This document shows, piece after piece, positions 41,059 to 63,486 of a stretch of 64,000 nt of DNA (position 1 is the first letter of the stretch; each line of letters starts with the position of its first letter). Source of the DNA: a virus. The stretch is from IMG/VR virus record IMGVR_UViG_3300006754_000011, positions 10,206-74,205 of that record; one strand, 5' to 3'. The notes under the pieces were generated by a model. The model was not told the DNA's origin. It saw only the letters and a program-made list of their open reading frames with translations, and did not search any database. A program made the position numbers and the translations under genes.

Positions 41059-41086
41059 GGATGCTTTTAAAGTCTTCCCAGGACTA
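41059..41086 (-). repeat. Leader pseudoknot copy 1
   Basis: AGUC-CUGGGAA-GACU-UUAAAAGC-AUCC. Confidence 0.6.
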
Positions 41087-41097
41087 GTGATTACATT

Positions 41098-41232
41098 CTA
41101 TTTACCTTGGCCACGATAAGGCTTTTTTCTTTTCACTTTGTAAGATCCTCTTTTTCTTCTTCCATCTCCAATAGAAGTTAACTTAGGCTTTGCTTCTGTA
41201 ACTAAAGATGAAGTTAAACTTTTTTTGTACAT
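41098..41232 (-). CDS. Small basic protein ending KKPYRGQGK (44 aa), absent from the ORF track
   Basis: Clean ORF; YRGQG C-terminus common in marine phages. Confidence 0.65.
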   Translation of the reverse strand: MYKKSLTSSLVTEAKPKLTSIGDGRRKRGSYKVKRKKPYRGQGK

Positions 41233-41270
41233 TACTTTGTAAACGATCTTTCAATTGTAAAACAAGTAAT

Positions 41271-41297
41271 AAAAAAGCCAGGTATTACCCTGGCCTT
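41271..41297 (-). terminator. Intrinsic terminator after 41318..42349
   Basis: GCCAGG/CCTGGC stem with a T-run on the - strand. Confidence 0.75.
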
Positions 41298-41317
41298 TAT
41301 TAGATTTTAGAACGAAG

Positions 41318-42349
41318 TTAGAAAGGAATCTCTCCTGTTTCAGGATCACGTTCTCCAATAACACGTTCAGCAGGAGGAAGAGCAGCAGTTCCTTGAGGCT
41401 TAAGTGCAGGAACACCTTCGGCAATTCCATAAGCACCAGCAAGTTTTGCAGCTTCCTGTCTGCTATGTCTATTGATATAGTCACCTAAGAAGTCGTCTTT
41501 TAACTGTTTCCAAGTTTCAGGTCTTAATTCATCTGGAATAGTCAGTTTAAGTAATGCCTTTTCAGCAGTTTCTTGATCAGAATATTCAGGAAGTTTTACA
41601 TCCTTTATAGAACAAACTTCATTTTTATAATGACCTTTAACTTCTGCAATTAATTCTGGTGAGAAAACACAGAGAGATTTAAAACGATTATCAAATTTAA
41701 CTCCAGCATCCATACCAAGAGCTGTGCTTAAACACTTCTCCATTTTTGTATAGAAATCTTTGAGTTTATTTGATAGATCTACACTGACTAAACCTTTTAC
41801 AGTTAAGACAATAGGTACTTCATGTGCAGGAGTATTGTCTTTTGTAAGAACATTAACTAGATATTTAACTCTAGTTGAGAAACGCCTAGGAGACTTATCT
41901 CTTTCAGCTTTTTCTTGATCTTCCTTAAAGGCTTCTTGAATATGCTCCATTGAAAAATCTCCAACAATAATGTTTTTAGATTTTCCAGTTTTTGGATCAA
42001 TAATAGAATCATCTACTACTAAGATTTCAGAAGTATGAATGATTTGAAGACGAGGTTCTATAAAGCAATGCATTCTTTCTTTAGCTCTACCTCTAAAGGT
42101 ATGAACATGATTAAAAAGAACACTTCCTTCTTCAAAATCTTTTGCAGTAGCAGTCCATTTACAAGTTGCCCAGTTATCTTCTTTAACACCGAAGTAGGCA
42201 GTACCTTCTCGGTCATCAACGAGAGGTTGTAGTGTTCCTAATCCTTGAATACCTGTGATGTATTCAGGATCTTTAAAGATGGCAAAGGAATCAAAACTAC
42301 GTGTACTTAACGCAGTTTTAGCAGGCTTAGAAGGCGACATAGTAGGCAT
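41318..42349 (-). CDS. Putative ssDNA-binding/recombination protein (resembles cyanobacterial DUF5895)
   Basis: PRLQII, N.PAHEVPIVLTVKG, acidic tail DPETGEIPF. Confidence 0.5.
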   Translation of the reverse strand: MPTMSPSKPAKTALSTRSFDSFAIFKDPEYITGIQGLGTLQPLVDDREGTAYFGVKEDNWATCKWTATAKDFEEGSVLFNHVHTFRGRAKERMHCFIEPRLQIIHTSEILVVDDSIIDPKTGKSKNIIVGDFSMEHIQEAFKEDQEKAERDKSPRRFSTRVKYLVNVLTKDNTPAHEVPIVLTVKGLVSVDLSNKLKDFYTKMEKCLSTALGMDAGVKFDNRFKSLCVFSPELIAEVKGHYKNEVCSIKDVKLPEYSDQETAEKALLKLTIPDELRPETWKQLKDDFLGDYINRHSRQEAAKLAGAYGIAEGVPALKPQGTAALPPAERVIGERDPETGEIPF

Positions 42350-42444
42350 TGTTAGATGCGGTAAATGTGTGACAGGTCCTCAATGCAGGAGTTGCACCCA
42401 CACAAGACAAGCTTGGTGCTGACTTGAGGTAGTTAAGAGCCTAC

Positions 42445-43191
42445 CTAGAAGGGAAGCTCTTCCTCACCTTTTGTTTTCATAGTTGATGATTCTTTATCTT
42501 CCTTAATAGTTGATTGATAAGGTTCAATTACAACGGGTTGAGGTGCTTCATATTTTTTTCCATTTGTTACAACTCTTGTTTCAGTATCAGGGTTTTCAAC
42601 TTTCTTTTTACCGAAGAATTGATAGAGACCAGCACGAGTTCTAATACTGTAACCGCCTCGTCTTTGTCCTTCAGCACTTTGCCAAGTTGAATAACGAAGA
42701 CTACCTTCCATAATCATTTGTCTTCCTTTATGTCCTAACATATCAATTCGTTTTGCATCATCTTCCCAAGCTTCTATTCTAAAACTTAAGCTATCATTCC
42801 AATCATGATTAAGTAAAGGTTGTGCAGGCGCGTTAGACATAACTGTAAACTTAAGTAAATTAGACAGAGGTTGTTCTTTAGCTTTCACATAACCACCTCC
42901 TAGTGTTACTTTATTCAATGTCAAACTACCCGGTACAATTTGAATTTCAGAATTAGGTACGAAATACATTTTATAATCTTGGCGACTTGGATAAAGACGA
43001 CCATTCAGTAATAGTCTTACTCCAGGTGCAAAAGAATTTAATATATCTCCAGCAGCTTTATTTGGTACGACATAAAGAGGAACGTCAGCACTTTTAGTAC
43101 CTATTTTTGGTAGATTAATATGTAGAAAGCGTAAGCCACTGTCACTAGTGAACTCACCTTGATAGATGCCAACGCCAACAAAAGTGTTCAT
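42445..43191 (-). CDS. Tandem OB-fold SSB-like protein
   Basis: LNKVTLGG...KGRQMIMEGSLRYSTWQ...; C-terminal EEELPF. Confidence 0.7.
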   Translation of the reverse strand: MNTFVGVGIYQGEFTSDSGLRFLHINLPKIGTKSADVPLYVVPNKAAGDILNSFAPGVRLLLNGRLYPSRQDYKMYFVPNSEIQIVPGSLTLNKVTLGGGYVKAKEQPLSNLLKFTVMSNAPAQPLLNHDWNDSLSFRIEAWEDDAKRIDMLGHKGRQMIMEGSLRYSTWQSAEGQRRGGYSIRTRAGLYQFFGKKKVENPDTETRVVTNGKKYEAPQPVVIEPYQSTIKEDKESSTMKTKGEEELPF

Positions 43192-43432
43192 GATTTGATT
43201 GTGATTTGATTTGGGGTACTGTAGAAAGCATTGTCAAGCCTGTCTAATATAACTTCTTCTACTGCAATCTGTCTGTGTATTAATAAATCAATTAACACAC
43301 AGAGGTCATCACTCATGGCATTTAATTCTTTTGTATCAAAATCTTTAAGAGATTTCTTAAGTAATTCTTTTAAATGACGGAAGTCAGTGACAGGTTTCAT
43401 TGTGCTTTTAAAAATAGGATTACTCTATGCTT

Positions 43433-43657
43433 TCACTCTAATATGTCAAGCAATTTATCTATAATCTTTTGAATAATGCTTACATCAATGTCCATAAAGG
43501 GTGGAATGATTCCTAAAACTCTTAATAATCCGTCAATAAATGCAGCCATAATAATAAACCCTAAAGCCATGCTTATCAGGGTTGCATTACGATTATGCTT
43601 GGCCATTGCGAAATCAATAGCCTCTTTAATCATTTCATCAACTTCTTGTCGATTCAT
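43433..43657 (-). CDS. Small membrane protein of cyanobacterial/cyanophage type
   Basis: HNRNATLISM..GF...DGLLR.LGIIPPFM.ID. Confidence 0.6.
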   Translation of the reverse strand: MNRQEVDEMIKEAIDFAMAKHNRNATLISMALGFIIMAAFIDGLLRVLGIIPPFMDIDVSIIQKIIDKLLDILE

Positions 43658-44380
43658 CTTAGTTTTTACTAAAGAATCTTTGATTTAGAATACAACTAAT
43701 AGTTATTTTAAGTTGATGAGGTTTGCGGGACAAGGGCTTGTTGCTCAACCGAAATGGGATCATAATCCTGTTATGGATGAAATACCTCGTTGGCATAATC
43801 CAAAAACAGGTAAATTAGAACCTATCAATCCTCCAGAGACAGGTCATGGATGGCCTGATAGAGGAGGTGGAGCAGTACATGGATCTAGAATAATGAAACC
43901 TATAGGTACTGAGCATCCGCTTGATCAACCAACTGGTTTAGATCCTTATCAAGATATGAATAATGTAGAAGTTGCAGGTTTACCTGAAGCTCTTACTGAA
44001 TGGATAACAGGAACAACACGTTTTCCTGGAGCCAAAACAGTTGATTCTTGGTTAGATAGAAAAAGAAGTAGGGGATTAGAGTTACCTGATGTAACTAGCG
44101 GCACTACTTTTAATTTAAGAGGTGGCAATAGCCTTCTTCAGCCACCGTATTAACTATGACAGTTTTAGATTCGCCTCCTGATTGGCGACCAAAAATTCCA
44201 ACAAGAGTTTTTAAAAGAACATGGGATGTGATAGGTTTAAATTACTAAGGTAAAAAATCAGTAGGCCCAATTCCTTCAATTCCTCTATGATTGGGACGAG
44301 AGTTTTCATGTATCATTCTCATTACAAGAATGATACATAATGCAATAAAAATTGCAGCTAAAATACAAATTGTTAGTAAC

Positions 44381-46231
44381 TTAATGGGTTTCCATCCAAT
44401 TATTTCCTATCCTAGCTTCACCTGTTAAGGGACATTTCAGTTTGAAATATTCACCAGATTTTCTAAAAGAATCGATTGCAAGTTCTTTAAAAATTTCAGT
44501 ATGGTGAGGACGGACTAAAGCTTGAACTTCATCGTGGACGTGAGCAACAAAGCCCCAGTCTTCTCCAAACTTTAAACCTTTATTTTCTAAATCATCATAA
44601 AGAATCGTAGTAGCTTTCTTAACTGTGATAGCTCCAGTTGATTGAAGTAATTGATTTAAAGCAGAATGTTTTGATCTGATTTGTAGATGTCTACCATCAA
44701 TACCTTTTAGATAGTTACGATCTCTTAAAGCAACATCAATATTATCTTTTAACTTTTTAATAGCTGGAAGATTTTTATAAAAGGTATCAATAGTTTGTTT
44801 ACCTTTACGGTACTGTTGATCTTCAGTACCCTTTGGCATAATTATTGAACCTGTTTTCTTACCTCCTCCGCCATAAAGAATGCAATAAATCAGACGCTTA
44901 CTAAGATCTCTAGTAGCTTTCTCTATAGGTTTATCCTGTTCTTGTATACCAAAGAGACATGCATTATGGAAATGAATATCACGATCTGGATTACTAACTA
45001 GTGCTGCATATTCACCTCCATCATAATAAGCAAGCCATGCACCAAGTGCACGAAGTTCAAGCCCAGAAGCATCAGCTCCGACTAACTTCCAGCCCTCTGG
45101 AGCATAGAAGAGAGCACGGCACTCAGCACCGTAAGGGTGCCCAACGCTAGGAATTTGCGCTGTATTCGGACGTTTGTGACTACATCGTCCACTGATTGCC
45201 GCGTTGGTGATAACTTCACCATGTATTTTGCCATCATGGTATCGATCACAGTGTTTAAGCCATGCCTCTTTCCCTTCCGCAATTTGACCTATCCTTTTAT
45301 TTAGAAGTTGATATTCAGCTAGTAGTTTAGCTTCGGGATATTTAGTTCCAAGTTTTTCAAGAACATCATCATCTACTTTTGGAGAACCTTTTTCTGTTGA
45401 TTCAAAAGTTATTTCAGGATACTTTTCTTTCAAACGTTCAGATGTTTGTTGTCTTGAAGCTGGATTAAAATTAGTTACTTTAGTTTTTAATTTTCTTCCA
45501 GTTTTTTCTGACCACCTTTCTTTTTCAATTGGAGGAAATGTATCTTGAAGATTGGTTTCTAATTCAGATCGTCTTACTTTTAAATCATTAACTAATGCAT
45601 AAGCAGATTTTGAATTAAAAGGGAAACCAAAACGTTCTTGTAAAGAAATAACTTTAGCGAATTCATGTTCTAATTTCAATGCTCGTTTATCCATTTCTTG
45701 AGCACGAAAATACTCATATAATTTATGTGTAACTAGAACATCTTGTTCACAGTATTCTTGCATACTTAAAGACCAAGATTCCCAGACGTCTTTAACATCT
45801 AATTCTTTTTTTGCTTCTTCTTTAAATGCAATTTTTTGTGTACCTAAACGTTCTCCCCATGCAGCTAAAGAATGTCTTCCTTTATATTTAGAATCAATAT
45901 GAGTCCATTTAGTATAGTCAAAACTTTCTAGTTCTGGTGCCCATAGACGGCTAGTAATTAGTGTATCAAAAACTAAACAATTTTTTTTCAGTTTAAAGAA
46001 TTTGGGGTATAGTTTTTCTAAAACAGGGATATCATATTTAATAACGTTATGACCAACTAATAGATGTGCTGAATTAAGAATAGAAATTCCAGTTTCAATT
46101 GGAGCATAACCTTCTTGATCACAACAACTAATAAATGTTCCATCATTAATATTTCGAAGAACTAAAGAATGAATAGTACTTACTGTATCTAGTAAGCCAT
46201 TTGTTTCTAAATCAAAAATGTAAGAATTCAT
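44381..46231 (-). CDS. T7-like family A DNA polymerase with 3'-5' exonuclease
   Basis: FDLETNG (ExoI), GHNVIKYD, YCEQDV, GADASGLELR (motif A), KRLIYCILYG (motif B, Tyr at the 762-equivalent), HVHDE (motif C). Confidence 0.95.
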   Translation of the reverse strand: MNSYIFDLETNGLLDTVSTIHSLVLRNINDGTFISCCDQEGYAPIETGISILNSAHLLVGHNVIKYDIPVLEKLYPKFFKLKKNCLVFDTLITSRLWAPELESFDYTKWTHIDSKYKGRHSLAAWGERLGTQKIAFKEEAKKELDVKDVWESWSLSMQEYCEQDVLVTHKLYEYFRAQEMDKRALKLEHEFAKVISLQERFGFPFNSKSAYALVNDLKVRRSELETNLQDTFPPIEKERWSEKTGRKLKTKVTNFNPASRQQTSERLKEKYPEITFESTEKGSPKVDDDVLEKLGTKYPEAKLLAEYQLLNKRIGQIAEGKEAWLKHCDRYHDGKIHGEVITNAAISGRCSHKRPNTAQIPSVGHPYGAECRALFYAPEGWKLVGADASGLELRALGAWLAYYDGGEYAALVSNPDRDIHFHNACLFGIQEQDKPIEKATRDLSKRLIYCILYGGGGKKTGSIIMPKGTEDQQYRKGKQTIDTFYKNLPAIKKLKDNIDVALRDRNYLKGIDGRHLQIRSKHSALNQLLQSTGAITVKKATTILYDDLENKGLKFGEDWGFVAHVHDEVQALVRPHHTEIFKELAIDSFRKSGEYFKLKCPLTGEARIGNNWMETH

Positions 46232-48292
46232 TTTAGAAATTTGTTATACAACCGAGCAACATTAATAATTTGTAATTCTGGAAAGGAAGGATCAAAGTTT
46301 ACAATTCTTTCTTGTACTGTTTTAGCAGCAGTAATAGTATTGAAACACATTGAATTGTTTAATATTTTTGAATTAAATATTTCAGATAAGATAAAACCAT
46401 CTTTATCTTTATTAATGCAAACGACTTTATCTAACTCTGGAGTAGAGAGTGTATATCCGCGTTGCATATCACTGCCTCGGTGCTTCATTGCTGGGAACCT
46501 TATGCATGATGTACATATCTAAAGCAATGTGGAGTAATAAAGGAGCCATTAACATTGCTTTCTTTGGTAGCCCACCGAAGAAACTTTCTAACTTGTCATT
46601 GAGATCACTTCTTTCTAACTCACGAAATTCAATTGAGAACATCTGTGCTAAACCTATTAAGAAATCTTCGAGTTCCTCATCTTGATTTTTAAGACGTTCA
46701 ATCAGTTCCCATAATTCGGGATCATTTTGAATCATCTGAATTAATTCATACATAATGACTTATCGTGTACGCCGCAAGCTTATCAGTACTACATTCAAAA
46801 TCAACAGTACTTTATGTAAGCTCTTTATTGAACCTTGGGGAATATCTCAAAAGAATTTTTGGGTATGGAATGTAGGTTTTGTAATAGGAAAATCAAACCG
46901 ACAACTCAATGATTGGTATACAGAACGTAGAAATAAGAGAGCAAGAAGTATTACTGAAAAAGTTATAGGAAAAGAAGGAGTAACAACCATTACTCAAGGG
47001 TGGAAAAGAGTTTTAAAATACCGTTGGTTAATTCCACCAGGAGATACCATTTGTCTTGACTGTACAAGTGGAGATCCAGATAAACAATTTAGAGCTTGGA
47101 ATTTCTTAAAAAGACATCATCATGATTGGGAGGTCGATGAAGTAAAGAAAGAATTTTATTGGACTAGACCTCCTTATCCTAGAGATCCTGTTTGGGATAC
47201 ATCAATAATTATTCCTCGGATTCCGAAGGATCCTTTGGGATCAATTTCGGATCAGGATTACTTTGATTGTTTTGATGCTCTTCCAAAAGATCGACATAGG
47301 GCCATATCCAAGAATCAAAATAATCGAGAATAAAATTTGTTTCTACTCGATAGCTTAAAGTTCCTAAAATTCCTTTAAGGATCTGTTTAGAGTCTTTGTT
47401 TCCTTCTACAGATTGCTCTAATAATTCTTCTAGAATTGCGCGTAACCAGCGGTGGGGATCTTCTCTTGGATCAAGATAGTTAGTAGTCATTTTCTTCTAA
47501 GAAGATAGAAGCTACTATAAATAATATATTAATTAGAACTAAATAACCAGCTGGATGGTAAAAATTAAATAAGAAAAATAAATTAGATACTATCCAAACT
47601 GTTGAGATTATGAGTGTGTATTTAATGGGCATGTTTACCTATAGTATGGAACGAAGAAAGGTGAAGAAGAACAACGTCAACCTTTCTTAATAGAGGGAGT
47701 CATAGTTTTTGTTGTTTCCTATGACTAGTAAGGAAGCTCCTATTCATTAGAGAAATCCTGAGTAGGAGACCCCTCTGCTTCTGTAAAATAAGGAATTACA
47801 TCTAATTTTTTACAGATTTCTATATATGTTTTTTGTTCAGGCTCTGTAAATTCATAATACATTTCTTCCAAACAATGAATAATTAAAGAACGTTGTTGTC
47901 TAGTAAAAAAATCTTTCATAGGATTTAAGATAATGGATCATCATAAATAGAAGTACCATCTGGATAGTAATGTCCTTCTTCTGGTACTAAACCGATACTC
48001 CATTCAAAGGTAATCCTATTATCACTATAGAAAGTAGAATCTTTATGAGAGCCATCTGTAAATCCTGCATCAAGCTGTTGTTGTATATGATAGAGAACAT
48101 CATGATATTCTTCAATAGCAGGAGCATCAATTTGAATTCGGAGACGATGTTGCATGGCTAAGGAATCGAAGACAAATCAGATTAAATCTGAATGGTATTA
48201 TTTTTTTTGGGCAATCATGGCAGCCAGTGTTGTTATAGGACAGATCTATGTAGGAACTGGCTATCGTGAAATGAATAATACTATTGAAGAGT

Positions 48293-49216
48293 TTATTCAA
48301 TGTTCTGTTTCGAAAGATAAGAATCGACAGTATTTGTAATCATTTCATACGTATCAAAAATACGTTTTCCTGAATTAGCAATCTCTTCTAGAACGTCATC
48401 AGTTGCCGTATTGTGATGAACGATGTACTCAAAAGAACGCTTACCAATATCAATATTGTAATGAGAACAGACCAGATAAGCTACTGATTCTGCTTCAAGT
48501 TCTTTAATAGACCCTGGAGTATTAATACGATATTCGTGACCATTGTGCAGAATTGCGTGGCCAAGCTCATGAGACATAACACTAAACGTTGTGGCAGCAT
48601 TAAGTCCTTTAACCAATTTGATTTTGCTTGCTGTTTGTTCATCACCTGTAAACCAACATTGACCTAATGCAGCTCCCATTTCTTCTTTAGAGACATCTAC
48701 TTGGACCGCAAGCTTACGTTTCGATGCTACTTGGCATAAACCATTAAAGAGGTCTGGAGATATGTCAGCTTCGATTTGATCCAGCATTGATGAAGTATCT
48801 GGTTCACTAATAGGTTCACCTTCTGTTTGATGGTGATCAAAGACATGAGCTGTCTTAAATCGGTAAGGCTTTCTAATAGGATTCCCTTCATCATTGAATA
48901 AAGGATTACCTGTATCATCAGTAACGGTATACATAACTGGTGCAAGGATATGGATACTTTTTTCGCCCTTTCTAACAGTGCGATTAAATTTAGTTTTCCA
49001 TGTTTTAAAACCAGCAACGAGAGAACTAATTCCATAGCCTCGTCTTTGTTGTTCTAAAGCAATTAAGAAACGATTATTAAAACTGTAATGATGTATCTTC
49101 CTCATTGTATTAAGAAAGCCTGCCCAATCTTTATCATTAAGAATTTGTTGGACACCTTCCTTTAAAGATCCCAAGAGTTCTTCTGGAATCTTTGAGAGTT
49201 TTGTTTCCGTAGTCAT
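48293..49216 (-). CDS. ArdC-like ssDNA-binding domain + HExxH metallopeptidase-like domain
   Basis: HHYSFNN..LI, VAGFKTWK..RTVRKGEK, VFD..QTEG, HELGH...ELEAESVAYLVC. Confidence 0.8.
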   Translation of the reverse strand: MTTETKLSKIPEELLGSLKEGVQQILNDKDWAGFLNTMRKIHHYSFNNRFLIALEQQRRGYGISSLVAGFKTWKTKFNRTVRKGEKSIHILAPVMYTVTDDTGNPLFNDEGNPIRKPYRFKTAHVFDHHQTEGEPISEPDTSSMLDQIEADISPDLFNGLCQVASKRKLAVQVDVSKEEMGAALGQCWFTGDEQTASKIKLVKGLNAATTFSVMSHELGHAILHNGHEYRINTPGSIKELEAESVAYLVCSHYNIDIGKRSFEYIVHHNTATDDVLEEIANSGKRIFDTYEMITNTVDSYLSKQNIE

Positions 49217-51634: not shown

Positions 51635-51658
51635 ACTTTTGTAGCAACCGCTACTAAA

Positions 51659-51718
51659 CGTTCACCTTATGTAATATAAGGCGCAGTTCGACTCAAGCCA
51701 AGGAACGGGGACTTGAGC
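51659..51718 (+). ncRNA. Glutamine-II (Downstream-peptide) riboswitch
   Basis: CGTTCA-[CCTTAT/ATAAGG hairpin]-CGCAGTTCGA-CTCAAG...GGAACGGG-CTTGAG pseudoknot, directly upstream of a DUF4278 gene. Confidence 0.85.
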
Positions 51719-51736
51719 ATTTATCGGACTAAGATC

Positions 51737-52906: not shown

Positions 52907-52911
52907 AAAAT

Positions 52912-52958
52912 GTGTGCAAAGGATCGTGGGTTGAGGGTGGTGCCTTAACCCTTTTTTT
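52912..52958 (+). ncRNA. Candidate ~47-nt trans-acting sRNA (seed GUGUGCAAAGGAUC)
   Basis: Promoter, 16-nt unpaired 5' end, 9-bp GGGUUGAGG/CCUUAACCC stem and U7; seed complementary to about 9 early-gene leaders. Confidence 0.7.
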
Positions 52959-53292: not shown

Positions 53293-53562
53293 CTACTCTG
53301 CTTTAGATGTAAGATCATTCAACATCAGGAATCGCTTAACTTCTTGATTAGGAGCTTCAATTAGTTTATTAATAGTCTTTAACTTCTTTTCAGCAGTTAA
53401 AGCTCGTTCACTCCAGTAAGCAAGAAGTTGATTGGTACTTCCTAGTTCAGTTTCAAGAGCTGTTTGAAATAAAGATGAAGGACTTATATCAAGGTCAGAT
53501 TCTTTCCACCTGGTAAAGAGTTCATCAGGCACGCTGACGCTAACAACTTGAGCCACTCGCAA
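53293..53562 (-). CDS. Ribbon-helix-helix protein
   Basis: VVSVSVPDELFTRWK...ISPSSLFQTAL. Confidence 0.6.
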   Translation of the reverse strand: MRVAQVVSVSVPDELFTRWKESDLDISPSSLFQTALETELGSTNQLLAYWSERALTAEKKLKTINKLIEAPNQEVKRFLMLNDLTSKAE

Positions 53563-54635: not shown

Positions 54636-55031
54636 TTAGCCTCCATCTATTTGGCAGCCAAGCATAGCGCCTGCGGCACCTCCTGCTGGTACTGCCCACC
54701 ATCTATCTTTGCCACGTGTTCCTGACATTGTGAGACCTGCTCCTAGCAGTCCTCCAATAACAGTACCTTCAGAGCAATCATTATCATCTACCTCTTTTAT
54801 TCTGTGAGGATGAGAATAGATAGCTGTTGGTCTAGAAGTTGTACAAGGAACTTCAACAGTTTCATCCCAGGCTTTTACATAGCCAGGAGAATTTCTAGTG
54901 CCAGGTACATATTCTTCTCTGTATTCATTACGAGTACATGTTTGAGAAGATGAATAACCTGGTTGATACTCTGCAGCTAAAGTTGGTGTTGCTGTAAACA
55001 GAGTAATAAGAGCTGTGCAAAAGAGTTTCAT
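54636..55031 (-). CDS. Secreted glycine-zipper protein
   Basis: Signal peptide; DDNDCSEGTVIGGLLGAG...GAAGAMLGCQIDGG. Confidence 0.7.
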   Translation of the reverse strand: MKLFCTALITLFTATPTLAAEYQPGYSSSQTCTRNEYREEYVPGTRNSPGYVKAWDETVEVPCTTSRPTAIYSHPHRIKEVDDNDCSEGTVIGGLLGAGLTMSGTRGKDRWWAVPAGGAAGAMLGCQIDGG

Positions 55032-57837
55032 TTCATTCTTTTAAATTGGGAATTCGTTCAAATTTTTCATTAACACACGAATCACAGATTACTCCGTGGC
55101 CTGAAAAGTAATGAACATGATGTGGTTCAGAACAATCTGGGCATGTTACTAAGCGTACTCCTTCAGGAGGATACCGGCCTTCTGTTTTTTCATCGAGAAC
55201 TGTAGTAGCAAACGTGGAGGTAATCATAATTCATGACATACATTCCACTCTAAATCTAGAGTATTTAAATAATTTAAAAATTGATTTGAATCTTTAGGAT
55301 CAATTCCATCTTGATGTGGAATGCTTACTGTTGTCCAACATTCTGCAGGACCATACTCTTCTGGTGAAGCTTGGTCAGGAGGATTATAGACAGCAGGATG
55401 AATAACTATTTGGTCTTCTACGATAGCAGTTATTTCATAAATACATTCGTCATTATCAAGAAGAATATCATCATAGGATTCAACAGATAAGATAGACATT
55501 TTTCTTAAGAGTTAGTGAATTTAAAATAGATCTATGAATATTAATCTAGGCCGAAGTGAGAAGTAGTTACAGTAGTCATCGTTTAGCTGGTGGTAATTCT
55601 TTACAATCAGGTGTTCCAATGTCACCTTTGACAAGACCAGGTGCCTTTGGAGAATTTGCTAATGCACTTAATCGAGTGGGCAAAATAAATTTTCCAAAGG
55701 GAGAACAATTTTTAAAACAAACTATTGATACACATAAAGGTCCAATAGTCATGACAATGGCTGAAATGTTTGCTAGACCTGGACAACAAGCAGCAGAACT
55801 TATTCAAAGAGTAGCAACTACTTTGAATGTTGCTAATGCACCTAATAAACCACATAATTTAATTACAGTTAACCCTCAAGTTTTAAGTGGATTACAGAAT
55901 CTAGGAAGAAATCTTAAAGGTATTGCAGCAGTTGATTTTGATTGGCATCCTTCATTAGGATATAAACCAATGGAAGGACCACCTGGTGGATTTGGTAGAG
56001 CTGATACTTCAAAAATTACTAGAGCAGTAGAAGATGCATTTCATAATAAAATCGTACCTGTTGTTCAACATTTAAATCCAGGTAAAACTGTTTGGTTACA
56101 AAATGATCCAACTACATTAAGCAGAGCTAAGCTTTATTCATCAGATTATTTACCACATGGTCGTGCCATGGGTCCATTAGATCCTACAGGTATGCAACAT
56201 AGTTTAATTTTACCTTCAGGACGAACACAAGGAATAGAACTTTTAGGAGGTCCTATACCTTCTAATCTTGCTGCATTTTTATCTAAAGAAGTTTAAAACC
56301 ACTTAGATTTTTTAACAGGATTCTTAATCGTTGAAGTAGAAGTTGTCGCTACTTTATTAGCAGGAGAACGATGATACATTTTTCTATCGAAATGTAAATC
56401 GATTCGTTTCTTACCCCAGTAAAGAGCAACAATCCAAAGAGTAAAGAGGAAGCCCTCTAAATAACTCATTGAATTCCAAGCATCAGTGGCTGCTTCCATA
56501 GTTATCCTCTACTTTGTTGATGGTAACATAAAGTTTTTCTGGTCTTTCTTCAGGAAAGAATTGATCAAAGACAGGACATAACCAGATTTCCATTTCTAGA
56601 TCTTCAGGATCTTCTATATCATCTGGAATATCTACTGGAAAATAGATACTGCCATCATCTTCTGCTCTTACATAGTAAAGAGTCAGATCATTCTTATCAC
56701 CAGACCATTTCTTACTACTAAAGATTACTTCAATTTTAGATACAGATTGATCTTTATATTTACGTTCAAGTAATTTATTAATTAATTTAGTAGCTGCTGG
56801 CATTAATGGTTCATCTTTTATAAGAGAACTATCTTCAAATGTGTAATCAAAGCACCAAAGATCACCTCCTTCTTCAAAGGCATGATGTTGTGGTGTACAA
56901 ATAACAGAGAACATTAAAAGGTCAGACATAAGGTTTATAGAAAAACGCGACAGAAAATAATTCCATCGCGTTTATTTAAAGATTACAATTCATCAAGTCT
57001 ACCGATCAAAAAATCTTCAGGTCGTTTAGAAAAAGTTTCTTCAACACCTGTCCAATCTTCTGGATCAGTTTCCATCATCAACCTTCGCTGTTCTTCAACA
57101 GCGTCAGCTGCTATGAAATTTAGATCTTGTTCATAGTCTTTAAAGTAAGAGCTACACACAGTTGAAGTCATTTTACTAAGTCCTTGGCCATTTTATAAGC
57201 AGTATTCTTTATCTCAGTTTCGTAAGAAGTAACAGGAGTTTTAACTTCATGTTCTCTTTCTAATTGAGATAAAACATCTGTATAAAAAGGAGTACCTGGA
57301 CCATAACGTTCAACTGTATATTCTGGGAACGCTTTTATAATGCGTTCTTTATTTTCTGAACTTGCATAAGCAAGTGTTTGAGATAACGCTTTAACAAAGG
57401 AGCCACCAAAGGTAGCCATACCTTCTCGCATTCGTAACATCTCTTCAGAATTCATTGGTGTGATAGCAAAGGAATAGTAGTGGACTTACACCTCCTAACC
57501 AGAAATGGATGTAGGGATGCCACTCACTATTAAGGATGATTAATTGTATTTTTAAGGAATATATATAGCAAGATAACTACACATATCCAAACAATAAAAC
57601 TAGTCATAATTAATCCCAGATGTTAAAGACATCTGCTTCACCTACACGATAACTATCTACTTGAGTAGTAGACTTGTTACCAATGATATGAAAAACTTTA
57701 GAGGCTGCTAATCTAAATGCATGAACAGTAAGTTGTCCAAGAGCTGATCTATTGCTAGATTCAATTCTTACTGGATCAGTACTGCCAAGATTACCGCCAA
57801 TAGGATCGTAAGTCATAATTAAATAGCAAAGGATTAA

Positions 57838-57867
57838 TAAGACTTTTAAAGTCATTCTTCAGGACTA
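57838..57867 (-). repeat. Leader pseudoknot copy 2
   Basis: AGUC-CUGAAGAAU-GACU-UUAAAAG-UCUU. Confidence 0.65.
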
Positions 57868-57978
57868 TTCGGTTGTCACTCCCTTTTAGGTGTAACAACT
57901 ATAGCGAATCGTGGATACCGAAGCTCTTACTTCGGTTCTCCTCGTTTTAAAATGTTATAAATCAAGTAAGAATGTATT

Positions 57979-58398
57979 ATGAACTCTAAAAAACTGAAGA
58001 CAATGATTACTCTTCCGTATCAGTCAGCCTTTGATATGCTTGACAGACTTGAACAACAGTTTTCTACTGTTGCAGGTATTCCTTCTGCTGAAATCTTAGA
58101 AGATCAAGACTTATACATAATCAGATTGGAATTACCTGGAGCTGATAAGGAATCTATAGATATTAAAGCTACAGATCGTACTTTAATTGTCACAGCTAAT
58201 CGAAAGATTATAGATGATCCAAAGAAAGTAACAAAAGTAGTTAATGAGTTTCGTTATGAATCTTGGAAAAGAATGTTTACCTTCTCTAATAATTTAGATA
58301 GAGATAAACTTGAAGCTAATTACAAAGATGGAATCTTAGAAATTAAAGCTAACAAAACAGAGGCTCATACATCTGTTACTGTCAATGTAAATGATTAA
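57979..58398 (+). CDS. Small heat-shock protein Hsp20
   Basis: IRLELPGADKESIDI...EFRY..WKR.F...EANYKDGILEI. Confidence 0.9.
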   Translation: MNSKKLKTMITLPYQSAFDMLDRLEQQFSTVAGIPSAEILEDQDLYIIRLELPGADKESIDIKATDRTLIVTANRKIIDDPKKVTKVVNEFRYESWKRMFTFSNNLDRDKLEANYKDGILEIKANKTEAHTSVTVNVND

Positions 58399-58695
58399 TA
58401 GCCATAGCCACTATCATTATCATCATCATTTCCTAGGATTAAAATCCAAAGCCAGATTAATCCTAGGACTAACATTAAACTTTCAAATAGCGGAGTAGAA
58501 AGCATTAAAGATAAGCCTTAGAGATGTTGGTAGCGAAACCAATAAGAGTGACACCAGCTGCTAGTACTGCTGCAGCACCTATCACCCATTTCTCTACCAC
58601 TTTTAAACGTTCTCTTAATTCTTCTTGCTTTTCTTCAAGACGTTCAATCTTGAGTTGCATGACAGTAATTTTTGTCTCTTGTGTTGCGTCAAGAC

Positions 58696-59394
58696 CTAGC
58701 TCTGACATGTTAAAGGAATCCATTGATCTGGATTAATTATACACATTTCATTATCCATTTCTAGGTTTGCTTTACCTGTCACAATAATGTCATAGATAAT
58801 TGAATATCTATTTATTGATCCACGATACAAATTAACTTCATGTTCTACACTGGAAGGAAAAATAATTAGTTGATTTGTAACAGGAGTATATTCTCCTGAA
58901 TCATATGATAAATATAATTGTTCTTCAAGATGCGGAGCTAGTGGGATATAACGTATAGGATGAGTCGGTGAAGCATGTAATTTTAATTCACCTCCTGTAT
59001 TTTCATTGGGATCTGTTTGTAAATAAAAGACCACACTTAAATGTGAATTCGGATGAGTATGTTTCTCAATAGTATTGACATCTATTGCTGTTCTTTGAGT
59101 AGGATCACAAACTACAGGCCAAGATTTTGATGCAAAGAGATCAAGAGTATTGATATTAATACCAAATTCTTTTAGATACTGATAACAATGTTTAGCAATC
59201 TCTTTATTTAACCAGGTAAACTCTTTATCTTTAGAGATTTGAAAAGCATTAACAGTATCTCCCGTTATGCTGTACATACTTTCATTACTTTTAATAAACT
59301 CTTCTACATAGTCGAGCATTCCTTGACGCTCTTCATCAGAAGGGTTTAAGTATTCAGTATATATAGCAGTAGGAAACCAGAGATCTATTGTCAT
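58696..59394 (-). CDS. 2OG-Fe(II) oxygenase (TIGR02466-like)
   Basis: WFPTAIY, HTHPNSHLSVVFY, LIIFPSSVEHEV, RYSI. Confidence 0.85.
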   Translation of the reverse strand: MTIDLWFPTAIYTEYLNPSDEERQGMLDYVEEFIKSNESMYSITGDTVNAFQISKDKEFTWLNKEIAKHCYQYLKEFGININTLDLFASKSWPVVCDPTQRTAIDVNTIEKHTHPNSHLSVVFYLQTDPNENTGGELKLHASPTHPIRYIPLAPHLEEQLYLSYDSGEYTPVTNQLIIFPSSVEHEVNLYRGSINRYSIIYDIIVTGKANLEMDNEMCIINPDQWIPLTCQS

Positions 59395-60943
59395 TTAATA
59401 TATCTCTAAGATTTTATTAGGACTTTATATTCGTGTTTTAATTTACCTTCTTTATAAACATGAGCTTTAGTTATGTATCTATCACTCATTATGCGAGCAA
59501 AGTGTTGGCATACATGTCCATTCTTAAAGTAAAAATGAGTTGTCATGTTATCAAACTTACATGACCATTTGCCTTCATCCTCTTTACAACGTTTCTTAAT
59601 AGTGAGAGCAATTTTCTTATCTAATTCTTTATTGACTTCTCTAGAGTTATAGAATGTTAATGGATAATAATTAGCCATTAGGTAACCTCCTCTTGTAGGG
59701 TTGTGCAATCAATTCGTTCATCATCCTGATAACAAATAATTTTCTTATACTTATCTTCTCTTTGCTCCATATAATTACGAGCAAGTAAAGGATTGATAGA
59801 TACTTTGGCATAATATTCAAAATCAATATCATAGCCACTATCATTATGGTTTAAAAAGAGAGAAATATAACAACCTTCAACAGGAACTTGTACAGAATGC
59901 TTAACTTGCGTTAAATACTTAGTTGCATGTTCTTTAATCATATTGTGAGTACAAATTGTACCTGGATTAACAATTTTTAAGAAACCTATTGTAGCGTCAA
60001 GTTCATAGTCATCCCAATGAATTGTTGGTTGATGTGCTGTTGTAATTGGAAGCATGAATTAATTTCCTATATATAAGGTAAATAACGCGAGCGTTAAAAT
60101 TATAGACGATGATTCCATGAATGCTCTTAATGTTAACTTTGCTGTAGTCATCAGAATAAAATGCAGTCAGAGAAGACTGCAGAGAATCTAATCGATTCAG
60201 TGCAATCATCAAGTATCTTTAACATATTGGAATGATTAAGACAACATAAAAAAACCAGAGAAGTTTTACCTCCTCTGGCCTTATTGTTATAGAGAACTAG
60301 CTAATCTCCAGAGTCTGAAGCTTAACTTTAGTATCCTCTATAAATTTGGAAACTTTAGGTGCAACATATGCATAAAGTTTCTTGCCGTCCTCCATTAAGT
60401 TATTCCATTCTTTGGTATGTTCATCAGTTCTTAACCTGAAATCACTTTCATAGCTAAGACGAGACTTACCAAACAAAGGAATCATCTGTGGAGTACCTTC
60501 TTTGAGAGAAGAGATGTGCTCTTCTAAGCTGGTAATCTTGGCTTCTAAAGTTGCCTTCTCTTGATCAGTCATTACTTTCTGTTCTTCCATCAATAGATTT
60601 AAACGCTCATTCGTAGAATAAGCCATAGATAACTCAGCAGCTTGCGAAGCTAGTGCTTGTTCTCTTTCTATTATGGTAGAGGAGATTGTTTTGAATGATT
60701 TATAAAAAGACTCTTTAGAACCTCTCTTGTACTCAGCAAGTAAATTTAACTGAGCAGGAGTCATGTTACTAACATCATCTTCGATAACTTCAGCAACCTC
60801 TGAGTTAATTTCTAACTGTTCGGTAGCTGTAGGAACTTCAGTAGTGACATTAGTTTCCATAGCCACGATTGGCATAGAAGAAGCTTGTCTTCTAGCTCTC
60901 TTAGAGGTGTTACGTCTAGACATAAATCTAGTGCAAGGGACAA

Positions 60944-60970
60944 GAGCCTTTTAAAGACGTACTCAGGTCA
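60944..60970 (-). repeat. Leader pseudoknot copy 3
   Basis: GAC-CUGAGUAC-GUC-UUUAAAAG-GCUC. Confidence 0.7.
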
Positions 60971-61022
60971 AAAGTTGAGGGAGGAATTGCACCTCCCCAA
61001 GGTCACTAGACTCAACTCACTA

Positions 61023-61394
61023 CTAAGAAGTAGCTACAACTTCCTTGTTGCTTTCAGCTTCAACACGTTGTGCTCGGCTGGCTTCACCAAGTCTTACGGT
61101 TATAGGACTGTCAGTTAAGACAACCTCCATACGACTGCGACGCTCACCATTCTCTGTTTCCCAAGTCTTATAAAGAAGCCTATAAGTTACAGAGATAGTG
61201 TCGCCTTGGTTGTAGCGACTAAGGATGTTGTTACCAATACCGTTGTACGCGGTAAGAGGTATGGCAGAATCTTCATCAGAACTGCCAACAGGCTTCACTC
61301 GAAACTCTGTTACTGTAAAGGAACCTTTAGGATTCCTCTGAGCAATACGAGAGACGATAGTGCCTGTGATACCACCGAAGTTGGTAGGATTCAT
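61023..61394 (-). CDS. ssb: Single-stranded DNA-binding protein (start at 61394, after GGAG)
   Basis: GDTISVTYRLLYKTWETENGERRSRMEV; OB-fold pattern. Confidence 0.7.
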   Translation of the reverse strand: MNPTNFGGITGTIVSRIAQRNPKGSFTVTEFRVKPVGSSDEDSAIPLTAYNGIGNNILSRYNQGDTISVTYRLLYKTWETENGERRSRMEVVLTDSPITVRLGEASRAQRVEAESNKEVVATS

Positions 61395-61420
61395 GGATAA
61401 ACTCCATAAGGTGTACAAAG

Positions 61421-61447
61421 GAATAGTTTTGTGACTTATTCAGGTCA
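61421..61447 (-). repeat. Leader pseudoknot copy 4
   Basis: UGAC-CUGAAUAA-GUCA-CAAAAC-UAUUC. Confidence 0.7.
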
Positions 61448-62054
61448 ATGCCATGCCAGGGGATTTGATCCCCCAGCTCATGCTTATGACATGGCAGCTT
61501 TAGTGCATGAATGTTTTTCATAGCAATCTCTCATCTGTTCAAGAAATTCTTTAACAGATGTATCTGGAACAACAGTAGAAACATCTTCTGTCTTCCAGTA
61601 AGGATTACCTTCAGAATCAATCATCTGAACTTGATATTCAAGAGCGTGTAATTGCCTACCTGGTAGATAAGCAACACGATCAAATTCTGGGCTTAAAGGA
61701 TAAGTCCAAGGTTGAATACGTGGCATTGTAATAATGCAAAGGACAAGGGAATGAATCCCTCAGTCTGCCTAAGAAAAGGCAGAGGGAGAGAGTCAGTTAG
61801 TTGAGTAACCTTTCTCTTGGCAGAACCTCATGTGCCTATCATGTTGTTCTGGAGACCAGTCTTGAGTGAGACATTGCATTCTCGAAAAGTAATTGAAGGA
61901 AGTAATTGTCACTAAAGGATAAGTAATTCCAACAGTTAATATGAAAGTACAAGTCGCAAGAAAGGCTTTTGTGTGGTAGTCCATAGTGTTAATACGAATG
62001 ATTAAGAAAAAATAAAGACCAGAAGATATAACTCCTGGTCTAAATCTTGTCTGC

Positions 62055-62288
62055 TTAGTTGTTAACTAGACCTCTAAGACTTAAATCAATGCTCTCGCAT
62101 TTCTTGTAGCCTTTGTTGTCTATTAAACTCTTTACAGACTTCCGAATCACTGCGATTGGAGCACTCAACATGGTGTAACGACTGCAACCATTAGCAGGAT
62201 CAACATGCAATAGTTCAGCCATATCACCATGTACATTCACGAGATAAGCATCATGAATGTTCTTTTGATATTGAAAAGAAGCCCACAT
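62055..62288 (-). CDS. Hypothetical early protein (start MWASFQ at 62288)
   Basis: ATG 8 nt downstream of the shared leader motif. Confidence 0.5.
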   Translation of the reverse strand: MWASFQYQKNIHDAYLVNVHGDMAELLHVDPANGCSRYTMLSAPIAVIRKSVKSLIDNKGYKKCESIDLSLRGLVNN

Positions 62289-62718
62289 GGTGGTAAGTGC
62301 GAAGGACACAGGGAAGAACCCTGTAGGAAATCCACCTCCCAAGAAGGGAGGAAGGACTAAGTACAGAGATCACTTGGTCTCTACAAATTCAACGAAATCA
62401 CTTACATCAACTTCGACTTTGCTGACAGGAGAAGGTACAACCTCAAGTTTCTTGGGTTCTACTTTCTTGGCAGCGCGAGGCTTTCTAGTAGCTTTCGCTT
62501 TAGTTGTAGATTTAGTTACCTCTATTGCATCAGGTCTTATCCACTCAGCAAGTTGAACTCTTGCTTCGTCGGTCTTAGCTCTTATTGCGGTACGTAGCTT
62601 AGATTTCTCATCGGTGGTAGCACCAAGGAAACTCAAGACTCCAGTACCAGCAACAAGTCCAGTGCCGAGGAGTAAGACAGCTTGATTACCTTTCATGGTA
62701 GAAAGTGCAAAGGATAAC

Positions 62719-62745
62719 GAATAGTTTTAAGACATATTCAGGTCA
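62719..62745 (-). repeat. Leader pseudoknot copy 5
   Basis: GAC-CUGAAUAU-GUC-UUAAAAC-UAUUC. Confidence 0.7.
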
Positions 62746-63129
62746 AAACCGAGGGTGAGGAATTGAACCTCTCCAACACATATAAAATGTGTTCCATCAT
62801 CTCGGCTCGATTTATCGTCTCGATAGACGACACCTGTTGGTGCTAAGAGAGGATGTGGACTGTATAGACTGACCTGCTGCAGACAGGCCAGCCACGAGGA
62901 ACCATCTCGCAACATTTACGACTACTTGGTTAGGTAGAAGGCAGAGAACGACTCTGCATATTTAGCCACCAGGCGTTACCTGGCTCTGGTGAGGACCACT
63001 CACACATTTCCGACCTGCTGGTTAGACAGGAAGGCTACGTTTAACGTCCAGCTTGACGCGAATGATAGATATAAAGAAAGCTATGTTTAACGTCAGGGAC
63101 AGCTCGACGGACGAATAAATGAAGCATTT

Positions 63130-63156
63130 AGCAGTTTAAAGACATGCTTAGGTCTT
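63130..63156 (-). repeat. Leader pseudoknot copy 6
   Basis: AAGAC-CUAAGCAU-GUCUU-UAAAC-UGCU. Confidence 0.7.
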
Positions 63157-63165
63157 GAGCTATTG

Positions 63166-63333
63166 CTAGCTCAGTGAAGCTTGGAACTCTGCTAATTCAT
63201 CGTGTGGGAAATCTGAACAGACTTCACCACCCGAATCCTTAGCAAAGGACTCAGCTTCCACTAGAGAATTAAATTCCCTAGTGTCAGGACACATACGTCC
63301 ACCGCGGTCGACGTAGAAATCCACATAAAACAT
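63166..63333 (-). CDS. Small acidic protein (55 aa, MFYVDFYVDRGG...), absent from the ORF track
   Basis: GGAGG SD 6 nt upstream of the ATG; clean ORF. Confidence 0.65.
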   Translation of the reverse strand: MFYVDFYVDRGGRMCPDTREFNSLVEAESFAKDSGGEVCSDFPHDELAEFQASLS

Positions 63334-63379
63334 GGATAACCTCCATGAGTGCGGTGCTCATCTCCGCTGGGAGCTGACG

Positions 63380-63406
63380 AAATAGTTTAAAGACATACTT
63401 AGGTCT
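63380..63406 (-). repeat. Leader pseudoknot copy 7
   Basis: AGAC-CUAAGUAU-GUCU-UUAAAC-UAUUU. Confidence 0.7.
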
Positions 63407-63461
63407 ATAAATACCGAGGGAGCGGAATCGAACCTCTCCTACACCATCTCAGTGAAAACAC

Positions 63462-63486
63462 ACAGTTTAAAGACATGTTTAGGTCT
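63462..63486 (-). repeat. Leader pseudoknot copy 8
   Basis: AGAC-CUAAACAU-GUCU-UUAAAC-UGU. Confidence 0.65.

Follow-up and report, generated by a model that had tools for sequence, protein, structure and literature searches.

A repeated small pseudoknot in the window

The window, a stretch of 64,000 nucleotides from a virus record of IMG/VR, carries a short repeat in eight places, all on the minus strand. The question raised by this locus is what the repeat is and what it does beside phage genes. An earlier note described it as a cis RNA module present in several copies, each a small H-type pseudoknot whose linker is rich in A, and the results below support this description. All eight repeats are present where the note placed them. 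GACCTRANNNNGTCTTTAAAC matches six sites with three or fewer mismatches, while 0.35 matches are expected by chance and none of 100 shuffles reaches six. The covariance-model scores of the copies range from 42.8 down to 19.8 bits, and no other site in the window exceeds 12.2 bits. The copies are as follows.

63460..63486, minus strand: pseudoknot copy 1, AGAC-CU-AAACA-U-GUCU-UUAAAC-UGUGU; 41.8 bits.
63380..63406, minus strand: pseudoknot copy 2, stem 2 AAGUA/UAUUU; 42.7 bits; start of a 55-aa ORF 46 nt downstream.
63130..63155, minus strand: pseudoknot copy 3, stem 2 AGCA/UGCU; 42.8 bits; 11 nt past the stop codon of ORF 63166-63333.
63078..63109, minus strand: probable variant copy, CGUC/GACG hairpin and UUAAAC, loop and tail pairing over up to 7 bp; found by eye, unscored by the model.
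63033..63058, minus strand: probable variant copy, CGUC-AA-GCUG-GACG-UUAAACG-UAGC; found by eye, unscored by the model.
62719..62744, minus strand: pseudoknot copy 4, stem 2 GAAUA/UAUUC; 40.3 bits; ATG of a 108-aa ORF 22 nt downstream.
61421..61447, minus strand: pseudoknot copy 5, linker ACAAAAC; 32.7 bits; stem-2 tail overlapping the word UCCUUUGUAC.
60944..60969, minus strand: pseudoknot copy 6, linker UUUAAAAG, stem 2 GAGU/GCUC; 35.3 bits; ATG of a 208-aa ORF 20 nt downstream.
57839..57865, minus strand: pseudoknot copy 7, stem 1 flipped (GUC/GAC), stem 2 AAGA/UCUU; 28.3 bits; ATG 22 nt downstream.
41059..41084, minus strand: pseudoknot copy 8, the weakest, stem 1 flipped, stem 2 GGA/UCC alone (3 bp) across a 10-nt linker; 19.8 bits, E 0.05; ATG of a 286-aa ORF about 23 nt downstream.

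The flip of stem 1 from GAC/GUC to GUC/GAC, noted earlier for two copies, is seen at 57839 and 41059, and the loop-tail pairings are all in the sequence (GAAUA/UAUUC twice, AGCA/UGCU, AAGUA/UAUUU, ACA/UGU, GAGU/GCUC, AAGA/UCUU, GGA/UCC). A common stem-2 register holds in five of the eight copies; those at 60944, 57839 and 41059 need a linker longer by 1-3 nt (UUUAAAAG and the like). Words like UCCUUUGCAC come after five copies; at 61421 and 41059 they overlap the stem-2 tail. The proposal that sRNA binding to this word competes with folding applies to two copies at most. Copy 1 is followed by a tRNA-like element and then by copy 2, and the gene next after copy 5 codes for an SSB-like protein, a borderline assignment.

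Fold and covariation

The eight window copies by themselves are thin evidence for a fold, because two of them are near-identical. The predicted fold is established through related sequences outside the window. The family motif is (A)GAC-CU-RAGCA-N-GUC(U)-UUAAAC-UGCUY, and each copy, judged from its sequence, is a self-folding H-type RNA pseudoknot of 26-27 nt on the sense strand. The two stems measure 3-4 bp (stem 1) and 4-5 bp (stem 2); the CU loop crosses stem 2, and the linker ending in AAAC probably occupies the stem-1 minor groove. G.U pairs are frequent in the stems; the motif is read on the sense strand because the other strand would turn them into C.A mismatches.

Both interleaved stems are supported by covariation in the larger sets. 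In an alignment of 90 sequences, pairing is kept in 95% of cells and four of the five stem-2 pairs are changed on both sides; none of 500 shuffles reaches any of these measures. Stem 1 was tested by scans of IMG/VR, in which the compensated flip was compared with two uncompensated forms. The compensated GUC..GAC form occurs at 130 unique sites, 121 of which have a stem 2 of at least 4 bp, whereas GUC..GUC and GAC..GAC occur at 17 and 12 sites, respectively, none with an intact stem 2. The fourth stem-1 pair, unconstrained in the search patterns, is CG in 47, UA in 29, UG in 14, AU in 11 and GC in 7 of the 130, which none of 5000 shuffles reaches.

All window copies and more than 200 relatives have either GAC/GUC or GUC/GAC as stem 1, closed by a C-G pair. 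The flipped form, most often CGUC/GACG, is as common as the unflipped one. The loop and linker are nearly invariant across phyla, the linker (UUAAAC or WWAAAC) changing only at its first two positions, and the single junction nucleotide varies (A, U or C). The stems are AU-rich and the same in phages of thermophiles (D6E, A403).

The topology and the A-rich linker resemble the preQ1-I aptamer (RF00522), which is likewise a roughly 30-nt pseudoknot whose 3' linker is A-rich, and ribozymes are found in similar slots beside phage tRNAs. The motif could thus be a small ligand-sensing riboswitch or a self-cleaving ribozyme, though we consider this very unlikely. The variable junction nucleotide leaves no obvious pocket and no conserved base to pair with a ligand, the downstream genes share no function and no link to queuosine genes, and no expression platform is seen (T only 37-48% at the four positions after the tail). 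The RF00522 covariance model gives no match at E up to 10 in the 1-kb and 161-nt stretches, and no other Rfam family matches either, in line with the earlier note's remark that the preQ1-I consensus is lacking. At 27 nt, the motif cannot accommodate the helices that known ribozyme classes require, and an HDV-like fold would not fit either, as the note also stated. The same low T content, with no immediate U tract, excludes an intrinsic terminator, and no copy coincides with a terminator-like site of the early region.

Spread among phages and hosts

The family comprises more than 220 viral loci in IMG/VR and about 30 prophage sites in bacterial genomes. Cultured phages carrying it infect Firmicutes, Actinobacteria, Cyanobacteria, alpha- and epsilon-proteobacteria and Bacteroidota, and the carriers are as different as temperate siphophages, crAss-like phages and cyanophages. 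None of 5,426 E. coli genomes contains the family. Rfam 15 has no matching family, and the motif is among the most widespread uncatalogued phage RNA motifs.

The motif is specific neither to early-region leaders nor to the window phage. In five Firmicute siphophages it precedes the scaffold and major capsid genes, which require high output; elsewhere it precedes integrases, separates tRNAs and sits within operons. In phage Cr-LKS4, three copies separate g80-g83, 3' of a TTGACA-N17-TATATT promoter, and are therefore inside a transcript.

Position along the transcript

The position of the motif relative to its neighbours should be noted. Its orientation is that of the flanking genes in all 13 annotated phage examples, and the upstream ORF is never overlapped. 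From the upstream stop codon to the first G there is a hard floor of 6 nt: the distance is 6 nt in 26, 7 nt in 16 and 8 nt in 11 of 102 cases (53/102 at 6-8 nt), and shorter than 6 nt in only three. To the next start codon the floor is near 20 nt, with a peak at 20-31 nt, and many copies lie 60-300 nt before it; this distance is more variable in annotated phages. Beside tRNAs the gaps are only 1-5 nt, and 1-3 nt after tRNA 3' ends. The 10-12 nt 3' of the knot are G-poor (11% G). About half of the downstream leaders are without an SD-like sequence, and the median distance in these is 29 nt.

A location 20-40 nt before genes and around small early genes would also suit a DNA-level element, either a phage promoter or the edge at which mobile gene cassettes recombine. 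Phages of the T4 type have promoter/stem-loop cassettes, and one record annotates the site as a predicted promoter. Two interleaved covarying helices that tolerate G.U, however, point to RNA. There is no -35 or -10 signal at a fixed distance and no upstream information content beyond position -1, so that a sigma-70 or phage-RNAP promoter was rejected; moreover, copies lie inside an operon with a sigma-70-type promoter, upstream ORFs are left intact, and the transcription machinery of the hosts is very different. We regard a DNA-level role as the least probable of all.

The placement is tightest on the upstream side, which may mean that the knot caps the gene before it, protecting or marking the 3' end of the upstream unit as a 3'-to-5' exonuclease block or processing site, rather than acting on downstream RNA. 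The motif sits as close to the upstream gene end as a ribosome's geometry permits, and a 3'-end role fits this equally well. The copies just past tRNA 3' ends, the window copies 2-8 nt past closed hairpins and the looser distance to the next start agree with such a cap. However, in the integrase leaders of Weissella prophages the motif is 38 nt 5' of the start codon, a cap makes little sense on a tRNA still awaiting 3' trimming, and coremin-type knots resist approach from the 5' side (PMC6546385). Genome compaction alone would also give a pile-up at minimum distance on both sides. This role is unlikely on balance.

The spacings equal a ribosome footprint on both sides. The knot might therefore be directed at ribosomes, either as an insulator against post-termination sliding or as a dock for the 30S subunit about 20-30 nt before the start in SD-less leaders. 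The frequency and spacing of such leaders and the G-poor stretch after the knot are consistent with this. Coremin itself stops scanning ribosomes, and its Watson-Crick form gives about 30% frameshifting without a second hairpin (PMC10520033, PMC10321173). Between tRNA genes, however, there are no ribosomes to act on, and many copies lie as far as 60-300 nt from the next start codon; a ribosome-directed role is likewise improbable.

A proposed roadblock in polycistronic phage RNA

We propose, with a probability of roughly 0.4, that the motif folds on its own into a roadblock, marks divisions within polycistronic phage RNA and protects what lies downstream from 5'-end-dependent decay. The knot would be just too far 3' for a ribosome that terminates upstream to reach it and just clear of the site where the next ribosome binds to initiate, and would therefore stay folded. 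We infer that it most likely acts as a mechanical roadblock to 5'-to-3' machines, as coremin Xrn1-resistant RNAs do, so that the cistron or tRNA downstream would be protected and every early gene would have its own stabilised 5' boundary.

In hosts that encode it, such as the cyanobacterial host of the window phage, the blocked enzyme would be the RNase J exonuclease; in the others it would be RNase E or RNase Y as it tracks from the 5' end. A 5'-exonuclease block had already been suggested, and it gains support from the hairpin and UUAAAC linker in common with coremin (PMC6546385, PMC10321173). RNase J as the sole target does not stand, because the enzyme is found in only 8 of 15 motif-bearing host genomes and in 8 of 14 controls; by itself it cannot explain the motif. 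Of the seven hosts negative for RNase J, five encode RNase Y and the other two, both MAGs, encode neither enzyme. Bacterial RNase J1 is blocked by a flaviviral xrRNA, and such blocks are therefore not enzyme-specific (PMC5760640).

The weak stems, unchanged in the thermophile phages, hint that the knot is stabilised by a partner and is not passive. The motif may accordingly be bound by, or act as a decoy for, a conserved factor of the host or phage (for example an RNA polymerase modifier acting in antitermination, an RNase or a defence nuclease), and tRNA-processing enzymes might free it as a small RNA. The near-invariant loop and linker, the many copies per genome and early expression in the window phage would fit this, tRNAs flanking at 1-5 nt would permit excision by RNase Z and RNase P, and the absence from E. 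coli prophages suggests dependence on a host factor. Nevertheless, no protein co-occurs across such different phages, the boxA-like UCUUUAA is lost in the equally common flipped form, and coremin works without protein. We think such a factor rather improbable.

If the roadblock exists, phages have a compact, portable device for choosing which parts of a message survive. It would explain the differing levels of capsid, early-gene and tRNA segments from one transcript, extend exonuclease-resistant RNAs from eukaryotic RNA viruses to bacteria, and provide synthetic biology with a 27-nt stabiliser. Even without a function, the motif merits an Rfam family, which would better the annotation of phage genomes.

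Comparison with known pseudoknots

Luteovirus and enamovirus -1 frameshifting pseudoknots, such as that of BWYV (28 nt, H-type), share size and topology with the phage knot, and likewise have 2 nt in loop 1, a single nucleotide at the junction and an A-rich loop that occupies the stem-1 minor groove. They differ in lying 3' of a slippery site in an overlap, whereas the phage knots are intergenic after stop codons and have AU-rich stems. A frameshift stimulator, which has to be 5-9 nt after a slippery heptamer in overlapping ORFs, was rejected, since the motif is at least 6 nt past stops, intergenic and also between tRNAs.

The most similar known RNA is coremin (xrRNA_C), CGUC-[CGAA]-GACG-UUAAAC-UAC, in which A15-A17 and C18 are essential and U13U14 can be changed (PMC6546385). 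It was described by Dilweg, Gultyaev and Olsthoorn in BNYVV, cucumoviruses and other RNA viruses (PMC6546385, PMC10520033). The phage motif has the same hairpin (3-4 bp, within the 3-5 bp of coremin; PMC6546385) with a pyrimidine-purine closing pair, a pyrimidine-first loop, the same U-U-A-A-A-C spacer with AAA and C constrained and UU tolerant, contacts of loop nucleotides with the bases right after the linker, and tandem copies. The loop differs, being 8 nt (C-U-R-A-N-N-A-H) instead of YGAD (4 nt) or YGNNAD (6 nt); it begins with Y, but U takes the place of G at the second position. The phage loop and tail form a 4-5-bp Watson-Crick helix, where the coremin loop contacts CUAC in a non-canonical way. 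The phage motif is carried by dsDNA phages, whose bacterial hosts have no Xrn1, and its copies lie between cistrons rather than in 3' UTRs. A second hairpin, strictly required for the Xrn1 resistance of coremin, is missing from the phage copies (37 of 201 have a candidate of 4 bp or more no further than 3 nt from the tail, compared with 45-53 at control offsets), which argues against the roadblock.

The Watson-Crick form of coremin (xrRNA_WCC), known from a selection experiment and two RNA viruses, shares the hairpin and linker with the phage motif (PMC10321173). In both, the loop pairs with the bases that follow AAA to form an antiparallel Watson-Crick stem 2, which in the phage motif shows compensatory changes at four positions. 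Stem 2 of xrRNA_WCC has 3 bp against 5 bp in the phage motif, and its bridging nucleotide is a required G in place of CU. It resists Xrn1, for which the second hairpin is still required, and stalls ribosomes even without that hairpin (PMC10321173).

These likenesses suggest, tentatively and at clearly less than even odds, that the motif, carried by phages of most bacterial phyla, is the prokaryotic counterpart of eukaryotic viral xrRNAs, a 27-nt protein-independent knot of the coremin sequence family that would set segment-wise mRNA stability by stopping RNase J or 5'-tethered endonucleases. It would then be the first natural xrRNA in the bacterial world, a fold common to dsDNA phages and RNA viruses of plants and fungi. 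What is new, on the sequence evidence, is a motif in no RNA catalogue that is widespread in phages; what is known is the coremin fold, which it closely resembles.

Copies of the pseudoknot in the window

The window takes up the final 64 kb of a viral contig 74.2 kb long. Besides psbA, its genes include those for tail fibres, a primase, and a family A DNA polymerase; together with the glutamine-II riboswitch listed below, they identify the virus as a marine cyanophage. The nearest cultured relative by polymerase is Synechococcus phage S-EIV1, which is distant (~43% identity). ARAGORN finds no tRNAs in the window. Minus-strand genes occupy 31–64 kb, and the motif copies are bunched at the far right end, which is the start of this block.

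The earlier note had described eight minus-strand copies of a ~27-nt H-type pseudoknot, in which stem 1 closes a loop that pairs with the 3′ tail as stem 2, and all eight are confirmed (lower coordinates 63460, 63380, 63130, 62719, 61421, 60944, 57839, and 41059, hereafter copies 1–8). A pattern search allowing up to three mismatches recovers six of them against 0.35 expected, and a covariance model scores the eight at 19.8–42.8 bits versus 12.2 bits or less for any other site in the window. Six copies have GAC/GUC as stem 1 and two have the flipped GUC/GAC, and every loop–tail complement that had been proposed is present in the sequence. Three copies (60944, 57839, and 41059) have a longer linker, UUUAAAAG, and the copy at 41059 is weak. 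Two probable variant copies are additional to the eight.

Features in the window
51656–51717, plus strand: glutamine-II riboswitch aptamer scoring 73.8 bits, embedded in the early block of minus-strand genes
63078–63109, minus strand: probable variant copy with CGUC/GACG hairpin and UUAAAC
63033–63058, minus strand: probable variant copy with CGUC/GACG hairpin and UUAAAC

A candidate at 58053–58078 (minus strand) was set aside, being antisense to a plus-strand ORF and found by a loose search that gives ~4 matches per shuffled genome. A possible divergent copy at 12757–12783 (plus strand) consists of AGAC, a 9-nt loop, GUCU, and then AAAAAC; it is uncertain, with loop–tail pairing of 3 bp at most, and begins only 4 nt past the stop of a tail-fibre gene ending at 12753. 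The gene downstream of copy 5 (61023–61406, minus strand) is borderline SSB-like (PF00436, 25.5 bits versus a cut-off of 26). This arrangement recalls the T4 gene 32 leader pseudoknot, but applies to only one of the eight copies.

Covariation in relatives

An IMG/VR scan with a pattern leaving four loop positions and the entire tail free detects at least 102 loci on very diverse contigs. Among the matches listed, all five tail bases are complementary to the loop in 74 of 86 distinct sites, with pairs such as GAGCA/UGCUC, AAGCA/UGCUU, GAGUA/UACUC, GAUCA/UGAUC, and GAUUA/UAAU. In a 90-sequence alignment, 95% of cells are paired and both sides change in four of the five stem-2 pairs, while shuffles and slid registers come nowhere near the real pairing.

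Stem 1 was tested by three further IMG/VR scans. The compensated flip, GUC..GAC, occurs at 130 or more unique sites, with stem 2 intact in at least 121, whereas none of the single-sided GUC..GUC (17 sites) and GAC..GAC (12 sites) matches has an intact stem 2. The fourth stem-1 pair was unconstrained in every search pattern. Among the 130 matches listed, 108 have C-G, U-A, U·G, A-U, or G-C there (111 if every standard pair type is counted), a level reached by 0 of 5000 shuffles. CAC/GUG (roseophage SIO1) and UGAC/GUCA (Ma-LMM01) are further natural variants. The frequent G·U pairs fix the sense strand and indicate RNA.

No Rfam 15 family corresponds to the motif at either gathering or E-value thresholds in the window or in the Weissella, S. 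aureus-phage-like, and tRNA-array loci. Literature searches with the motif sequence string return primers only, and nothing specific was found on phage pseudoknot motifs. The RNA pseudoknot family is real, strongly supported, and uncatalogued, and the structural reading of the earlier note is right, being backed by the covarying stem 2 and the compensated stem-1 flip. In phage D6E of a thermophile (1195–1240), a post-knot GGACAA is complementary to UUGUCC, formed by the 5′ flank and stem 1, so that stem 1 could face competition from an alternative helix.

Host and phage range

The motif is found in cultured phages of Lactobacillus, Staphylococcus, Streptococcus, Clostridium, Bacillus, Geobacillus, Anoxybacillus, and Moorella, in phages of Mycobacterium and Arthrobacter, in those of Microcystis, Nostoc, Planktothrix, Cylindrospermopsis, Acaryochloris, and Synechococcus, and in those of Roseobacter-group bacteria, Paracoccus, and Moraxella. 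Further carriers are crAss-like phages. No enteric or Pseudomonas phage is among the carriers found, and 5,426 complete E. coli genomes contain no copy, the sole match being marginal and in a plasmid ORF. BLAST matches in ICP1 and other Vibrio sequences are partial and within coding regions, and were treated as chance.

Scanning 185,579 species genomes gives 68 sites, ~30 of which have an intact stem 2 and look like prophages. In several Weissella species, for example, the knot lies in a conserved ~80-nt leader 5′ of prophage tyrosine-integrase genes, with up to six copies per genome.

Position relative to genes and ribosomes

All 13 annotated examples are intergenic and in the same orientation as the neighbouring genes. 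In Cr-LKS4, three copies lie between four consecutive small genes downstream of a TTGACA-N17-TATATT promoter, and are therefore internal to the transcript. In five Firmicute siphophages, the scaffold and major capsid genes have a copy ahead of them. In tRNA arrays, copies sit 1–3 nt past one tRNA and 1–5 nt ahead of the next.

The distances to the flanking codons should be noted. Where a long ORF lies upstream (102 sites), the spacing between stop codon and first G is never 0–1 nt; values under 6 nt occur at just three sites, against 26, 16, and 11 sites with 6, 7, and 8 nt, respectively. Judging from established ribosome geometry, a stop codon in the A site would place the knot's first paired base at the opening of the mRNA entry channel, at about +12 to +13. 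On the downstream side, few start codons lie within 20 nt of the knot, and their number peaks at 20–31 nt, where an initiating 30S subunit has its 5′ edge; copies 4, 6, 7, and 8 follow this rule (20–23 nt). The 12 nt 3′ of the knot are G-poor (11% G). The spacing on both sides shows that the knot is held clear of ribosomes, which fits an RNA structure needing to stay folded and counts against a DNA signal. An element acting at the DNA level is highly improbable.

Elements adjacent to the knots

Y-shaped elements occur immediately upstream (2–8 nt) of four copies. Each consists of a closing stem of 6–9 bp plus two hairpins, one small and one GC-rich, the latter with a 7-nt loop that is T-loop-like (UUCGAUU, UUCAAUU, or UGCAAUU). 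Both ARAGORN and the Rfam tRNA model reject them as tRNAs. They have no U tract, in contrast to the true terminators of the region. The stretch 57600–64000 is enriched in terminator-like hairpins bearing U tracts (10 on both strands versus 3.6 expected), and none there coincides with a knot.

Elements near the knots
60973–61017, minus strand: Y-shaped element
61449–61496, minus strand: Y-shaped element
62748–62806, minus strand: Y-shaped element
63413–63453, minus strand: Y-shaped element
63920–63956, minus strand: terminator-like hairpin with U tract
63717–63732, minus strand: terminator-like hairpin with U tract
62016–62041, minus strand: terminator-like hairpin with U tract
60251–60282, minus strand: terminator-like hairpin with U tract
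60162–60181, minus strand: terminator-like hairpin with U tract

The word UCCUUUGCAC, with up to one mismatch, occurs 11 times on the minus strand of the window against 3.8 expected (sites include 41052, 52914, 60931, 61413, 61734, 62297, and 62705), mostly 7–16 nt before minus-strand start codons. Five knot copies have it downstream, and in two it overlaps with the tail strand of stem 2. Competition between sRNA binding and folding, as suggested earlier, is possible for these two, but not for the other copies.

Possible function

Among the functions first proposed, the 5′-exonuclease block is the best-supported reading and our current best guess, with a probability of about 0.4. The knot would act as a self-contained roadblock between cistrons, shielding the downstream RNA from decay entering at the 5′ side. 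Cleavage between a Y-shaped hairpin and the following knot would leave both products protected, the upstream one at its 3′ end and the downstream one at its 5′ end. Placement fits two other readings almost as well: a cap protecting 3′ ends, which we consider unlikely, and a ribosome-directed insulator, to which we give a similarly low weight.

RNase J as the sole target is not supported, since it is encoded in 8/15 motif-bearing host genomes versus 8/14 controls, the same rate. RNase Y is present in five of the seven motif-bearing host genomes without RNase J; one or the other is found in 13/15, though the background for the union is likewise high. Both RNase J and RNase E are present in the cyanobacterial host of the window phage. 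Such blocks are not enzyme-specific, since bacterial RNase J1 is stopped by a flaviviral xrRNA (PMC5760640).

Even thermophile phages have AU-rich stems, which may indicate that a partner stabilises the fold. A role in binding or decoying a factor is rather improbable, and a riboswitch or ribozyme very unlikely.

Comparison with known elements

Several assignments were rejected. The resemblance of UCUUUAA to a boxA (NusB–NusE) site is lost in the equally common flipped form; a MotA box or sigma-70 promoter was dropped as no elements lie at a fixed distance; and stop-codon readthrough was dropped as the next in-frame stop lies inside the motif in S. aureus phages.

The closest likeness is to coremin, an Xrn1-resistant RNA of BNYVV, cucumoviruses, and other RNA viruses. 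The BNYVV element consists of C1 G2 U3 C4, the loop CGAA, and G9 A10 C11 G12, followed by U13 U14 A15 A16 A17 C18 U19 A20 C21 and a second hairpin; A15–A17 and C18 are unchangeable, U13U14 can be changed, and the closing pair must be pyrimidine–purine (PMC6546385). A Watson–Crick coremin with a 3-bp stem 2 is Xrn1-resistant, and ribosome stalling persists without the second hairpin (PMC10321173). Phages, bacteria, and RNase J go unmentioned in these papers. In its common flipped form, the phage motif is CGUC, loop CUGAGCAU, GACG, UUAAAC, and UGCUC, with hairpin, linker, and tolerance pattern all the same as in coremin. However, its loop is 8 nt long, its stem 2 has 5 bp, and a second hairpin is missing; for these reasons we place it outside coremin itself, as a variant of the coremin kind.
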